From positions 7,337-71,336 of the forward strand of contig DAXZ01000053.1 in NCBI GenBank assembly GCA_002506665.1: DNA of 64,000 nucleotides, in the 5' to 3' direction. The notes beneath the pieces were generated by a model. That model saw nothing but the letters and a program-made list of their open reading frames with translations, searched no databases and was not told the origin of the DNA. How positions within the stretch are numbered: position 1 is the stretch's first letter; every line of letters starts with the position of its first letter. This stretch comes from Nitrosopumilus sp. UBA526 (GTDB lineage Archaea; Thermoproteota; Nitrososphaeria; Nitrososphaerales; Nitrosopumilaceae). The translations under genes were made by a program, and so were the position numbers. Shown here in pieces: positions 41,053 through 53,181 of the stretch.

Positions 41053-41879
41053 TAATGCCGTCTGAGTTGGCGGTCAGATGTTTTATTCGTTATGGAAGGG
41101 GAACTGTATTTTTTCAGCTAGTGGCCGCCAAACTAGATGTTCTCATTAATGATATGTGTTTCTAGGATAAAAAAGCACCGCTACTTGGGCCTAAAATTCA
41201 TTTGAAAATAGTAAAAATATTGTACAACTGTAAAGACAGATCCCAAGCTTGATGCAAGACATGAAAACAACACCACAACACTTGATTCCATTACAAAGTA
41301 CTCAGAATCAACTAGTCCCAAAAACAAGATTGTATTCTAGTGAAACACCCAGATATTTTGCATGTACAAAAAGGACGTTCCAAACACATTTGACCCAATG
41401 CAGTAAATGAGTGGTTTAGTGTCAATGAGGTTTTGTTTGAATGTGAGCCAAGAATTATTCACATTTGAAGATGTGCCAAAGGACGTACAATACCAGGTAG
41501 CCTTATACAAAACAAAAGCGGTGAATTCTATTTGCAAAGTAAAACCAGTTGAGGGTATTGCCACAGACGATAAAGGCACCATAGTAAATGAATGCTTTTT
41601 GGGACAAATATGACAAAGTAAAAGAAAAACACGGCGCACCTGTTCTCAACATCAAGAAAGAGGCACCATGTCAATATATCACATCCTAGTCCGGGGGGAA
41701 ACTGACGAAATATTAAGGCAGGCAAGGCAACTCGGGCAAGAAGCGATATTTAGCTTGCATCCTGACTGCAAGCATGAAATTATAGGCACAAAATAATCCG
41801 GCCAACTCTGCACTCAAATGCATTGCACGCCATAACTAACTAGCAAAACATACAAAAACTAGACCCTTATTTTATTAAT

Positions 41880-43482: not shown

Positions 43483-44331
43483 ATGCCAGCACAAAATATG
43501 AGACACACCATGCGGCAGTTTGTAGTGCATAATCACGCAAAGTCATTAAAGCTTGTTCCTTATGTGGGCTGCAAGTCTGGCTTTGCACACATCTTTGACT
43601 CGTTGATTCCAAAAGACTATGGCAGAAAAATATACGATGTGTTTGGCGGTGGAGGCGGATTTACTTTTTATGCCTGCAATAGATTCGGGTCTGAAAATAT
43701 AATTTATAATGATCACAATCCTGTAATTACAAACCTCTTAGAGTCACTTCAAAAACATCCGGGTTTATTGTATGACGAGTATCAAAAGCACCATGTACGG
43801 TCTAGTCCTGATTACTATCTTGATGTACGAAAGATGGATTTAGATGACGGGGTCAGGGGTGCAGGCAGGTTCTTTTATCTTGCAAAGAATGCATTTTCTG
43901 GCAAGATACGGTTTAACTCAAAAAACCAGTTTAACTGTCCTATGCGAAAAAATGCAAAATGCCCTCAAATTAGCCGTGAATCATTATCATCGCTGAGTAA
44001 CACGATACGTCATCTTGTAATAACAAACAAAGACTATGGGCATTATGAGGATGTGAAAGACGGGTTTGTCTATCTTGACCCTCCATACATGAATAATACC
44101 AACGGACATTACAATGCAACTGTGCCACTAGCTGATTTTGTCAGATTTGTAAGCACGGTTCAAAAATTAAACAAGGTGATGATCTCTGAGCAAAATGACC
44201 CTGACAGTCTTTTGCTGTCTTCTGATTATACGGTATTTACAGTGACCCTTCACCGCTCACTGCAATATGTAACACAGAACCAGAGCCAAGAGATAGTTGC
44301 AGTAAACTATGCTGTATCTGAACAGACATGA
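43483..44331 (+). CDS. Dam-like (D12 class) DNA adenine methyltransferase
   Basis: YVGCK, DVFGGGG, FVYLDPPY. Confidence 0.88.
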   Translation: MPAQNMRHTMRQFVVHNHAKSLKLVPYVGCKSGFAHIFDSLIPKDYGRKIYDVFGGGGGFTFYACNRFGSENIIYNDHNPVITNLLESLQKHPGLLYDEYQKHHVRSSPDYYLDVRKMDLDDGVRGAGRFFYLAKNAFSGKIRFNSKNQFNCPMRKNAKCPQISRESLSSLSNTIRHLVITNKDYGHYEDVKDGFVYLDPPYMNNTNGHYNATVPLADFVRFVSTVQKLNKVMISEQNDPDSLLLSSDYTVFTVTLHRSLQYVTQNQSQEIVAVNYAVSEQT

Positions 44332-45471: not shown

Positions 45472-46425
45472 TTGAATCAAACAGAGATATATTCAATGCT
45501 GTACACTAGTGTCATAGGAAATATGTTAAAAAACACACGTTCCAAGAAAAAACGAACGAAAACTTTTATGAATGGATTTGGAGGAACAGCCAGAATAAAT
45601 CATGATAGCACAAAGTTTTATGGCAGAAAAATGTTTGCTGGCACAGACGTTGCAGACAATACAGAGTATGAAAATGACATTGGTAGATACCGCGATACAA
45701 TACAATGCCGGGACAGTAGAGCCCTTGGACATATTCCAGACTCGAGCGTTCACCTGATGGTGACGTCCCCGCCCTATAATGTGGGCAAGGATTATGATGT
45801 GGATTTGGATTTGGCAGAATATCTTCAAATGTTACATGATGTGTTTGGGGAGACCTATAGAATTCTAGTCAATGGAGGACGAGCTTGTATCAATATAGCA
45901 AATGTAGGCAGAAAGCCATACATCCCATATCACAAATTCATCATAGATGTAATGACACAAAACGGCTTTGTTATGCGCGGCGAAATAATTTGGAACAAGG
46001 GAGCAGGAGCCGGGTCATCTACTGCCTGGGGGAGCTGGTTGTCTGCATCCAATCCTGTTCTAAGGGACACACATGAATACATCCTAGTATTTACAAAAGG
46101 CAAGTTCAATCGGGCATCAAACCAAAGACAAAGTACCATATCACGAGACGAGTTTTTGACATATACGAAAAGTGTCTGGACGTTTAATCCTGAAAGGGCA
46201 AAAAAAGTAAATCATCCTGCACCCTTTCCAACAGAACTGCCGTATAGATGCATTCAGTTATACACGTTTAAGGGAGATACAGTATTTGATCCCTTTTGTG
46301 GTTCTGGCACCACTGCAATATCTTCTATATCTCTGGGCAGACATTATGTCATGATTGATAAGAACCGGGATTATGTCAAAACCGCAAAGAAAAGAATCAA
46401 GGATTTAAAGTCTCAAGAACACTAA
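45472..46425 (+). CDS. Beta-class N4-C/N6-A DNA methyltransferase
   Basis: TSPPY precedes HPAPFP and DPFCGSGT. Confidence 0.9.
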
Positions 46426-48142: not shown

Positions 48143-48556
48143 AATTAATTAATCATCAATATTACGGGTACTAGGAATCAGCATTGGAGAAATTAACCTC
48201 AAAAGAGATCATTTCCAATCAGGCAATGTTACTTTAATATCGAGAATAGATTTTCCAGCTGCAGATTTTAATTCTCTTTGTTTACAGTGCCATGTTGGAA
48301 CTTTTTATGTTTGCACCTACATGATCACAAGCCATTGATGAATCAGATAATTTGACATTTTCAAAATCGGTCATTAATCCTCGTACATAATTGCCGGATT
48401 CTTTGTTATCAGCACAAAGAACCCTGAACTCAAATTTTGGCATTTAGTTGTTTATCTCTAGGAGAATTTGTTAATATTACGTATATCTAATTTTGAACAC
48501 ATGTAGACTATCGGTTCCTAGACTACTCTTTGTTGCAAACATGGATCTAATGCCTC

Positions 48557-48574
48557 AAAGATTACGTAATCTTT
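48557..48574. promoter_or_regulatory. Perfect 18-bp palindrome AAAGATTACGTAATCTTT overlapping a TATA-like box, copy 1
   Basis: Self-complementary; TTTAAA lies ~30 nt upstream of the ATG. Confidence 0.7.
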
Positions 48575-48604
48575 AAAAGATACTAGATAGTTTATCTATA
48601 TAAG

Positions 48605-48754
48605 ATGAATCCAAATGAACCCGCCATTCTCACAGGTCAAGATGCTATAGATTTTGACAATTATATGAAAAGAAAGGCTACCAAAAAGGAAATAGAATAT
48701 GCTAAAAAATGTGAAGAGTACTATTTGGCAAATCAACCAAAAACCAAAAAATAA
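48605..48754 (+). CDS. 49-aa putative antitoxin, copy 1 (MNPNEPAILTGQDAIDFDNYMKRKATKKEIEYAKKCEEYYLANQPKTKK)
   Basis: Own promoter; intact in both copies; P.L.G.DA..F pattern resembles antitoxins found upstream of GNAT toxins. Confidence 0.7.
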   Translation: MNPNEPAILTGQDAIDFDNYMKRKATKKEIEYAKKCEEYYLANQPKTKK

Positions 48755-48822
48755 TTATCCCCCTTACTTTGTTAATTTTATGCCTAGACAACTCTTTAGT
48801 GCAAACATGGATCTAATTCCCC

Positions 48823-48840
48823 AAAGATTACGTAATCTTT
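48823..48840. promoter_or_regulatory. Perfect 18-bp palindrome, copy 2
   Basis: Identical to copy 1 although the flanks have diverged. Confidence 0.7.
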
Positions 48841-48870
48841 AATAGCCACTAGGTAGTTTATCCATATAAG

Positions 48871-49020
48871 ATGAATCCAAATGAACCAGCCATTCTCAGA
48901 GGTCAAGATGCTATAGATTTTGACAAATATATGAAAAGAAAGGGTACCAAAAAGGAAATAGCCTATTTTAAAAAATGTGAAGAGTACTATTTGGCAAATC
49001 AGCCAAAAACAAAAAAATAA
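48871..49020 (+). CDS. 49-aa putative antitoxin, copy 2 (MNPNEPAILRGQDAIDFDKYMKRKGTKKEIAYFKKCEEYYLANQPKTKK)
   Basis: Ends 24 nt upstream of the GNAT gene. Confidence 0.72.
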   Translation: MNPNEPAILRGQDAIDFDKYMKRKGTKKEIAYFKKCEEYYLANQPKTKK

Positions 49021-49044
49021 TTACCCCCTTACTTTGTTAATTTT

Positions 49045-49608
49045 ATGCCTAGAGAATCTCCTAAAATTCTAGTTGATATTACTGGATTTGGTTATCAAAA
49101 ATTGACTTTTAACCATAAACCTAATCTTGACTGTACTGACAAGCTCGGCAAGGATTCACAATGCCTACAAAAATTTTTTGATAAAAGAGCATTAAAAAAT
49201 CAAGATGCTCATTTGGGAATGACCTACATTATAACTTACAAGAAAAAACCTATTGGTTATGTCACACTAGCAACAGCAAATATCAATAAGGACGCAATAT
49301 TCAGTAAAGCAAGACCAAGTACTCGTGATGGTGCTCTTTTTCCAGCTATGATAATTCTTGATTTCTGTATTGATAAAAAATCAAGAGGCAAAACTTATGG
49401 CGAGTATGTTCTGATGTGGTGTAACGGATTAGCACGAACTGTTTCAGAAAAGATAGGATGTAGATTTATTATATTGTATACCAAGGATCCAGACGCAATT
49501 AGATTTTATACAAAACATAATTATCAATTCGCTGAAGGAAATCAGAACGATAAATTCAAGCTAATGTATTATGATTTATTCCCGGAACTATTAAAAATAA
49601 CAATTTAA
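49045..49608 (+). CDS. GNAT acetyltransferase, TacT/AtaT toxin-like
   Basis: LQKFF...A, IGYVTLA, FPAM, IDKKSRGKTYG, GCRFIIL, AIRFYTKHNY. Confidence 0.8.
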   Translation: MPRESPKILVDITGFGYQKLTFNHKPNLDCTDKLGKDSQCLQKFFDKRALKNQDAHLGMTYIITYKKKPIGYVTLATANINKDAIFSKARPSTRDGALFPAMIILDFCIDKKSRGKTYGEYVLMWCNGLARTVSEKIGCRFIILYTKDPDAIRFYTKHNYQFAEGNQNDKFKLMYYDLFPELLKITI

Positions 49609-51832: not shown

Positions 51833-52018
51833 CTATGTGGCCGTTCTTGGTTCACCGTGAAGTTTCTTTTTGTATGCAATCACTCTTTCTCTGACCTCAT
51901 CTGGCAGATCCTCCATTTTCCATGCTCCAATTCTCAAGCCATGAAGGACATTGGCAACAGAAAACATTTTGTTTCTGCAGTTTGGTGGGGCAAATGTATT
52001 TGGAATATCTTGAACCAT
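51833..52018 (-). CDS. 61-aa microprotein, paralog A (putative antitoxin/partner)
   Basis: Paralog at 52897; differences mostly synonymous; own TTATAT box. Confidence 0.78.
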   Translation of the reverse strand: MVQDIPNTFAPPNCRNKMFSVANVLHGLRIGAWKMEDLPDEVRERVIAYKKKLHGEPRTAT

Positions 52019-52053
52019 AAGGTATCATACGGTGACACTTGAATATAACCTTA

Positions 52054-52542
52054 TCATTCTGTTTCTATAAACTCGTGGTCTCCATTAGGAAACATACGTA
52101 AAACAGATTTTTGTGCATAGTGTTTGGCCATCATCATTACTACCTTATGACTAGCTTGAACAGGATAGGATACATCCAAATATTTTTGTCCATCTTCTTC
52201 CCATGCTCCATATATGGGCGTATTACTGAATTTCAATACTTGGTTAAATGCTGACTCAACCTCACGATCTAGTGTTCTCCCTTCGTGGTTGGTTATAGCA
52301 ATAAAGTCAATATCTTTTTTGGGATCAAATTCTGGATGGAACTTTAGCATCTCTTTAAAGAGCGCAAATGCCTCTTTTCCAACGGTAGCATCAAATGCAT
52401 TGCCAGTTGCCGGATTCAACGAGTATCCAATACGGTTATCCTTGTCAATAATACTTTGACATTTTTCTCTAGTATCATCAAAGCTAGGTGCAGGAGGACA
52501 TTTCTTGACTGGTCTCTTTGGAGAACCGTCTTTTGACTGCAT
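52054..52542 (-). CDS. Hypothetical protein with SAM-lyase/DUF3293-like C-terminal motif
   Basis: FIAITN...YGAW.E....LDVS......A..YAQKSVL; likely start ATG 52542 (162 aa); ORF open to 52662. Confidence 0.6.
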   Translation of the reverse strand: MQSKDGSPKRPVKKCPPAPSFDDTREKCQSIIDKDNRIGYSLNPATGNAFDATVGKEAFALFKEMLKFHPEFDPKKDIDFIAITNHEGRTLDREVESAFNQVLKFSNTPIYGAWEEDGQKYLDVSYPVQASHKVVMMMAKHYAQKSVLRMFPNGDHEFIETE

Positions 52543-52896
52543 GTACAAGGAATTTTCTTTAGATATTTTCCGTTTTGGGTTGCTTTCTATGATCGCATCT
52601 ATGCACCCAAGATAATACCAGAGCCTCTTTATCAATAACACGACATACTTTTGAATGTTCATACCTCATAGTACGGTATAGTACTGCATAATAATCTTTT
52701 GTATGCTTCGGCAGAGTTACCGGGACGGGCATACAGATTTCTCTGAATCAAATCTCATATCTATTTGTATAACGACATATTTTGAATAATGATTTTTCGT
52801 TGGTTAGTGCCATCTACAATAATCTTTGATGCTTTCAAAGTATGACCATTCAGACTATTAAGAAAATATCTATGTAAACTTTCGGCGCACTATAAG

Positions 52897-53079
52897 CTAT
52901 CCTTGATTTCCCACGTGAATCTTCTTTTTGTATGCAATCACTCTTTCTCTGACCTCGTCTGGCAGATCCTCCATTTTCCATGCACCGATTCTCAAGCCTT
53001 GGAGAACACTGGCAACAGAAAACATTTTGTTTTTGCAGTTTGGTGGGGCAAATGTATTTGGTATGTCTACTGGAAGCAT
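52897..53079 (-). CDS. 60-aa microprotein, paralog B
   Basis: 47 of 51 core residues identical to paralog A. Confidence 0.78.
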   Translation of the reverse strand: MLPVDIPNTFAPPNCKNKMFSVASVLQGLRIGAWKMEDLPDEVRERVIAYKKKIHVGNQG

Positions 53080-53115
53080 GCAAGTAACACCATACTCTGG
53101 AATATAACTTTGGTG

Positions 53116-53181
53116 TTATTTTATCTCGATAAACTTGAAACGACCATCCGGCGATATACGCAAAACAAATTTTTGTGTCAT
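53116..53181 (-). pseudogene. 3'-end relic of a paralog of the 52054..52542 gene
   Basis: TQKFVLRISPDGRFKFIEIK* vs AQKSVLRMFPNGDHEFIETE*, in the same position relative to the microprotein gene. Confidence 0.75.

Follow-up and report, generated by a model that had tools for sequence, protein, structure and literature searches.

The window analysed here, a stretch of 64,000 nucleotides, belongs to contig C47 of a 1.39-Mb archaeal assembly, which looks by eye, from its gene content, like that of a Nitrosopumilaceae-type thaumarchaeon. On its minus strand, a compact locus contains, in this order, the 3' stub of a large gene, a copy of GTTATATTC, partner B, a spacer holding an insertion sequence (IS) relic, an intact large gene, a second copy of GTTATATTC and partner A (Table 1). 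All of the elements listed in the initial annotation (the stub, the repeated GTTATATTC, both small partners and the 162-aa gene) are present on this strand. However, that annotation did not include the IS relic, the TATA-box role of GTTATATTC, or the fused and C-terminal-tip forms of the proteins described below. On one side the locus is flanked by what we take, by eye, to be a DsbA-like gene and on the other by a gene presumably encoding peptide release factor 1. A third, degenerate copy of the partner domain lies between genes that we assume, also by eye, to be trpA and pyrG.

Table 1. Features of the locus, with positions counted from the first nucleotide of the window
Feature	Position	Strand	Remarks
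SAM-lyase-like large protein, 162 aa, putative toxin/effector	52054..52542	-	start placed from the N-termini of homologs and from the IS relic upstream
GTTATATTC, likely TATA box of partner A	52041..52049	-	-30 from partner A ATG
Partner A ('NTFAP' domain, 61 aa), predicted to be the cognate inhibitor of the large protein	51833..52018	-	
Decayed insertion-sequence relic	52545..52894	-	left-end motif and transposase 3'-end match; right end approximate
Partner B, an orphan copy of 60 aa that is under purifying selection	52897..53079	-	
GTTATATTC, likely TATA box of partner B	53100..53108	-	-28 from partner B ATG
3' stub of diverged large gene, 21 codons, ATG-TQKFVLRISPDGRFKFIEIK-stop	53116..53181	-	covers the final two beta strands, where contact with the partner is predicted
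Weak third partner-domain copy with internal stop	41368..41517	+	partner profile E 0.004, 1 TAA

The same layout was reproduced in public contigs from two sequencing runs of a single sample that may be linked to this assembly; there, unique segments were equal in depth (307-330 in X1) and depth approximately doubled where the repeat collapses. Such even depth rules out an assembly artefact as the source of the repeat.

Both copies of GTTATATTC, at -30 and -28 from the partner ATGs, lie inside the peak of TATA-like sequences at -31 to -27 that is seen genome-wide, in 756 upstream regions. This position makes GTTATATTC a likely TATA box of the archaeal type, so that each partner likely has a leaderless transcript of its own. 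We rejected GTTATATTC as a recombination site, given that the TATA position explains it and that it is absent from the partner copies on contigs C1 and C62; a sigma-70 promoter scan was not applicable to the locus. At the large gene, no TATA-like box was found for either of its possible starts. The open reading frame ending at 52054 encodes 162 aa from the ATG at 52542, or 202 aa from 52662. The 350-bp spacer that separates partner B from the large gene contains the left-end motif of an IS as well as a segment matching the 3' ends of transposases on other contigs; judging from these, it is a decayed IS, presumably IS481/IS3-like by eye. The first 40 codons of the 202-aa version fall inside this relic, and the additional N-terminal codons of the database call are therefore likely spurious.

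Partners A and B differ by eight synonymous and four non-synonymous changes across 51 codons; our recount agrees with the initial annotation, and the purifying selection proposed there is borne out (dN/dS 0.12, Fisher p=0.0006; pS 0.24). The differences are not adenine-specific, and a template/variable repeat of a diversity-generating retroelement (DGR) was discarded. The 19-codon tail common to the stub and the full gene behaves in another way. There, pS reaches 0.58, exceeding the partners' value, while the protein pattern is kept (dN/dS 0.27, p=0.08). Silent-site divergence of this size combined with a preserved pattern marks the stub, as far as its sequence tells, as a piece of a diverged relative rather than a recent decayed copy of the neighbouring large gene. 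The earlier idea of a degraded second module proved too narrow, as cassettes made of a stub plus a partner recur in five genomes and look like immunity genes retained as orphans.

The large protein and its possible SAM-lyase fold

SAM lyases (PF23780, the T3/Svi3-3 type) are homotrimers with active sites at the subunit interfaces, and they convert SAM into MTA and homoserine lactone. The 162-aa product had been proposed to resemble them and DUF3293 proteins. A phmmer search of 1.84 billion representatives returned 50 matches, namely the query itself, 47 unnamed homologs that we kept and two repeat-like partial matches (P0044 and P0052) that were dropped before this count; P0020, P0026 and P0045 were excluded from alignment A3 on length. 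No model for either the large-protein or the partner family was found in Pfam, NCBIfam or PADLOC, and PHROGs gave no significant match; the large-protein query, searched against these collections, gave the same outcome. PF23780 and DUF3293 both exist in Pfam, and the query matches neither. Among the 49 non-self phmmer matches, none hit DUF3293 and two hit PF23780 (E 1.2e-5 and 0.004), both below cut-off, with the best of them reaching 25.7 bits against a curated threshold of 28. One of the 49 matches phrog_2226. Word-index homolog searches recovered only the query, and sequence searches of the PDB found no match.

The AF2 model built from 45 sequences (pLDDT 94.7) comprises an N-terminal alpha/beta extension, a ferredoxin-like beta-alpha-beta-beta-alpha-beta core and a C-terminal hairpin. 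When it was compared with 48,161 chains by VIA-align, eIF4E ranked first (Z 5.3) and T3 SAMase second, with Z 4.9, a value below the tool's typical-noise level (rmsd 3.7, 93 residues aligned); Svi3-3 gave Z 4.0 (rmsd 4.2, 94 aligned). In BFVD, the three best matches (E<=0.001) were unnamed, a DUF3293 protein ranked seventh (E 0.003, prob 1.0), and the nineteenth rank fell to a phage SAM hydrolase (E 0.03). A Foldseek search of the PDB with the large protein returned nothing at E<=0.001, and no solved structure resembling it or the partner was found. The structural check proposed earlier thus yielded a fitting topology, middling scores for T3 SAMase and Svi3-3 that are tied with those of unrelated folds, and no significant Foldseek match in the PDB.

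Profile comparison by hhalign with five phage SAMases was collinear over 89 columns (E 0.01, probability 4%) and paired, at this low probability, G112, W114 and Q144 with the phage G, Y and Q; a single-sequence comparison with T3 SAMase failed. In PMC7877911, Svi3-3 is described as requiring Gly56, Tyr58, Glu69, Gln104 and Glu105. Across the 45 aligned rows of our family, G112 is conserved in 45, D123 in 45, Q144 in 44 and W114 in 41, so that the conserved Gly56 and Gln104 are matched by G112 and Q144. The position of the catalytic Glu69 is taken by Asp123 in all 45, on the matching strand and in an approximate register, and position 145, equivalent to Glu105, is Glu in most members and Lys in the query. 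For comparison, structural conservation in the SAM-AMP lyase extends only to the Glu and the Gln, according to PMC12255297, and in that article and PMC7877911 the fold family takes in SAM-AMP lyases and PII-like nucleotide binders.

With phage SAM lyases (T3 gp0.3, Svi3-3; PF23780) and SAM-AMP lyases, the large protein thus shares a predicted ferredoxin-like core, a Gly and an aromatic residue on beta2, an acidic residue on beta3 and a Gln before beta4. In contrast, Asp in place of the catalytic Glu, a 70-aa N-terminal extension and a TNH motif occur only in the large protein, which further differs in its archaeal range and in the lack of a PF23780 match for the query. Unlike the pair described here, no dedicated small partner of phage SAM lyases figures in the passages of PMC7877911 and PMC12255297 on which we draw. 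Overall, the structural and profile signals for a SAM-lyase-like fold are weak but concordant, while the resemblance to PF23780 and DUF3293 does not extend to a Pfam match of the query. We take the large protein to be a divergent relative of SAM lyases, which may work as they do and which departs from the family at the catalytic Glu.

Linkage of the two genes and their predicted complex

Among 150 genomes of the family, the partner was found in 15, the large gene in 15 and both in 12, leaving three with partners only; matches are concentrated in two genera, and the largest number of partner copies in a single genome is 24 (G059). Within 301 genomes sampled across the phylum, the large gene was not found outside its own family. 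In 69 loci chosen around matches, which come from related genomes and are hence non-independent samples, a partner lies within 1.1 kb of 30 of the 36 long large-gene matches and directly downstream in 18. One of the remaining matches ends at a contig edge, and the five without a near partner are, by inspection, all C-truncated or split by an IS. A full gene precedes 18 of the 88 partners and a stub or partial gene another 24; a further 18 are close to such a gene in some other arrangement, and the remaining 28 have none nearby. These categories are approximate, given that some stubs are the tails of genes split by an IS or a frameshift. Reversed-frame controls gave 0 matches. The partner profile was widened by five divergent copies that had been located through their position and had scored weakly with the initial profile; divergent partners accompany divergent large genes. 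Both genes are also adjacent on a metagenome contig (L110), and P0020 unites both domains in one protein, with the partner fused behind the large domain (E 1e-15). These data support the co-occurrence of the two genes elsewhere that the initial annotation had named as a check; the viral scans found no relative.

In the genome studied here, the partner profile finds six copies. The layout is repeated on contig C1 (L001:3925-5900), in an island where a tail joined to an Endonuc_Holl relic is followed by a partner, an unknown cargo gene of 182 aa, a large gene reduced to its C-terminal half and a second partner with a frameshift; the island also holds what we take by eye to be a KTSC-like relic. 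On contig C62 (L002:5159-5876), two tandem pairs of 30-aa and 90-aa genes with no family matches come right after an orphan partner copy. Elsewhere, partner copies of genus g13 alternate with TPR-repeat genes, so named by eye (L070:583-2576 and L014), and two genomes (L031:1477-1911 and L034:1477-1911) encode just the C-terminal half of the large domain, fused to another domain, with no partner detected.

In G059, an in-frame ATG or TTG lies 18-20 codons inside the end of the large gene, with no stop after it, in all 16 partners examined. Such an overlapping start would account for the retention of stubs in this genome; the Tyr-Glu and Phe-Glu codons themselves create these triplets. We discarded the covariation of tails and partners in G059 (rho 0.51, n=16) as support, as linkage explains it and two false tails occurred among 38 pairs. 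Extra partner copies without a whole toxin gene, in this genome and in some relatives, are likely antidotes.

A complex of residues 14-162 of the large protein with partner A was predicted with a score of 0.74 (best of three controls, 0.01); the score mark used is reached by 116 of 157 solved complexes and two of 215 mismatched pairs. The runs share at least 85% of contacts, with a partner pLDDT of at least 86. The interface comprises residues 154-162, 145-151, 114-116 and 121. Its contacts are centred on 154-162, the strand that the stubs keep, and extend to the putative active-site region with W114, Y121 and 145-146. The partner is thus predicted to sit on the last strand of the large protein and on its likely active site, in a direct complex of the kind that the initial annotation anticipated. 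Fold searches with the partner itself gave a best Z of 3.6 and no BFVD match at E<=0.001.

Leaders, fusions and possible viral context

In genus g13, the partner forms the N-terminal domain of 210-220-aa proteins, often directly upstream of large genes. The fused domain matches SocA/Panacea (PF13274) weakly and below cut-off (E 0.05-0.06, in G078), the match being absent in two of the four genomes tested. It also falls in an Atlas cluster (0.93) with 21% PF13274 and matches DarG at E 4e-4 to 0.013; Pfam scans of the domain gave no match. As described in PMC10440598, multidomain Panacea antitoxins bear an added N-terminal domain that neutralises the toxin. The g13 proteins share with such PAD1-type arrangements a small domain that precedes a Panacea-like one within the protein, and a gene position upstream of that for a candidate toxin. 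They differ in that their matches stay below cut-off and in that the partner domain has no known fold match; the main text of PMC10440598 contains neither 'lyase' nor 'S-adenosyl'.

The SAM-lyase-like domain forms the C-terminal end of 46 of the 47 homologs. Leaders of at least 75 aa precede it in 21, and 17 of these carry WxT or HxR..GxF motifs, which also occur in phage head-associated effectors. Two motif-bearing leaders match portal-protein PHROGs weakly. A domain at the C-terminal tip behind such leader motifs would, by analogy, resemble virion-packaged toxins. L110 holds a large gene with its 5' end cut, which resembles the leader-bearing P0012 by eye, together with the partner and a gene that we take, by eye, to encode a head protease. 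On L109 (217-1002), a gene that looks by eye like an ADP-ribosyltransferase lies directly upstream of a leader-bearing large gene; Pfam gave no support for this label. These two short contigs, labelled by eye, are the only ones that provided viral-context neighbours.

No viral relative was found in five IMG/VR scans or by tblastn against GenBank phages, a GTDB scan found no relative, and Pfam and PHROG scans of the homologs revealed no MuF domain. According to PMC5576092, MuF toxins have small immunity ORFs downstream, and head-packaged effectors are described in PMC9503650. With MuF-type and other head-packaged polymorphic toxins, our family shares a variable N-terminal leader, a C-terminal effector domain and a small downstream ORF. 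In contrast, no MuF domain was detected in the present system, which has apparently new effector and partner families and includes chromosomal copies without a leader. Because the viral database scans found no relative, a viral origin of the pair is something we infer, from the motifs, the weak portal PHROG matches and the labels made by eye, and we lean only slightly towards it.

Interpretation of the pair

Overall, we consider it probable that the locus is a virus-derived toxin-immunity pair, made of a large protein with a predicted SAM-lyase fold and a putative inhibitory partner, whose orphan immunity genes are hoarded by the cells. The partner is most likely the inhibitor of the large protein, which may act on SAM, an assignment in which we place somewhat less than even confidence, or on a related nucleotide. 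The toxicity of the 162-aa protein would come from the cleavage of SAM or of a related adenosyl nucleotide, and the small partner would attach to the C-terminal strand of this enzyme, over the active site. The pair would descend from head-packaged effectors of archaeal viruses. Cells would lose or break the toxin gene and keep the partner, with its own promoter or an overlapping start, and the kept partners would build orphan immunity arrays against toxin variants. In the window, partner B would be such an orphan and partner A the cognate inhibitor; because an IS relic has taken the place of its upstream region, the toxin may be weakly expressed.

The Bacteroides AID clusters are one known case of orphan immunity arrays. 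Vibrio T6SS arrays (PMC5361080) are another; as in our loci, immunity-like genes there form strings that have outlasted the effector, of which 3' ends are left behind. Here, however, the arrays are archaeal, one partner family has diversified in place, no secretion system was seen beside the loci, and the final 18-20 codons of the toxin gene are overlapped by the partner frame in G059.

Several features of the data would suit a type II toxin-antitoxin or abortive-infection module that works purely inside the cell, in which extra partners are by-products of tandem duplication and IS damage and do not act against toxins from outside. Large genes on chromosomes stand by themselves and have no long leader, genus g13 has antitoxin-first operons with the Panacea-like fusion, the partner has its own likely promoter, and the G110 copy adjoins a recombinase relic, recognised by eye. 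There are also other short tandem duplications of small genes in this genome, and duplication alone could give some of the partner copies. Such a module appears fairly unlikely to us, however, keeping in mind that orphans are under purifying selection and come with diverged tails, that nearly a third of the partners have no large gene nearby and three genomes hold partners only, and that leader-bearing homologs suggest a delivered form.

It is also improbable that the small protein serves a split two-domain enzyme as its subunit or activator rather than being an inhibitor, since partners are far more numerous than intact large genes and are kept where these are missing, occur as tandem double domains or fused to unrelated domains, and are predicted to contact W114 and 145-146 of the putative catalytic site. 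The natural fusion P0020, the tight overlap of the two genes in many loci and a predicted beta-strand contact that fits a subunit equally well would speak for such an enzyme. Still less credence can be given to a non-toxic large protein that binds or degrades a nucleotide signal (SAM-AMP or a capped nucleotide) in anti-defence, with the partner as its regulator: a harmless protein leaves unexplained why a dedicated partner should be kept after loss of the large gene, and why the five partnerless genes among the 36 long matches are all damaged. The Glu-to-Asp change, the family-specific TNH motif, the N-terminal extension and the eIF4E folds scoring level with SAM lyases nevertheless accord with this very unlikely alternative, as do the SAM-AMP lyases and PII-like binders assigned to the fold family in PMC12255297 and PMC7877911.

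Returning to the toxin-immunity pair, SAM would be a useful target in hosts rich in restriction-modification genes, as sponge-associated thaumarchaea are reported to be (PMC7848895). It is tempting to speculate that viruses of ammonia-oxidiser-type archaea pack a SAM-destroying enzyme into their heads against SAM-dependent defences, and that hosts capture and diversify the viral inhibitor gene into counter-counter-defence arrays, the first dedicated inhibitors of the SAM-lyase fold. As a whole, we regard this scenario as being on the unlikely side.

Our literature search returned no SAM-lyase-fold toxin with a cognate inhibitor and nothing on this pair, and passages of PMC5512222 contained nothing relevant. 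The layout is of an already known kind, while both families, the pairing of this fold with an inhibitor and the archaeal arrays appear new. If our reading is true, it would add a class of toxins attacking SAM, a natural inhibitor of that fold and archaeal orphan immunity arrays, and would open virus-host conflict in an archaeal family with few cultures to direct testing. The two proteins are small and soluble-looking, with many natural variants for specificity comparisons.

Finally, we would like to mention some other genes of the window. Two genes that look by eye like DNA methyltransferases, which are SAM users, lie at 43483-44331 and 45472-46425, less than 9 kb from the locus. A low-GC patch near the window end contains a gene for a ParB-HTH protein (PF17762; 62631-63335, minus strand). 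At 48517-49608, on the plus strand, a 266-bp tandem duplication of a 49-aa ORF is found directly upstream of a GNAT acetyltransferase gene matching phrog_1758 (E 2e-18), an arrangement that likely represents a GNAT toxin with a duplicated antitoxin.
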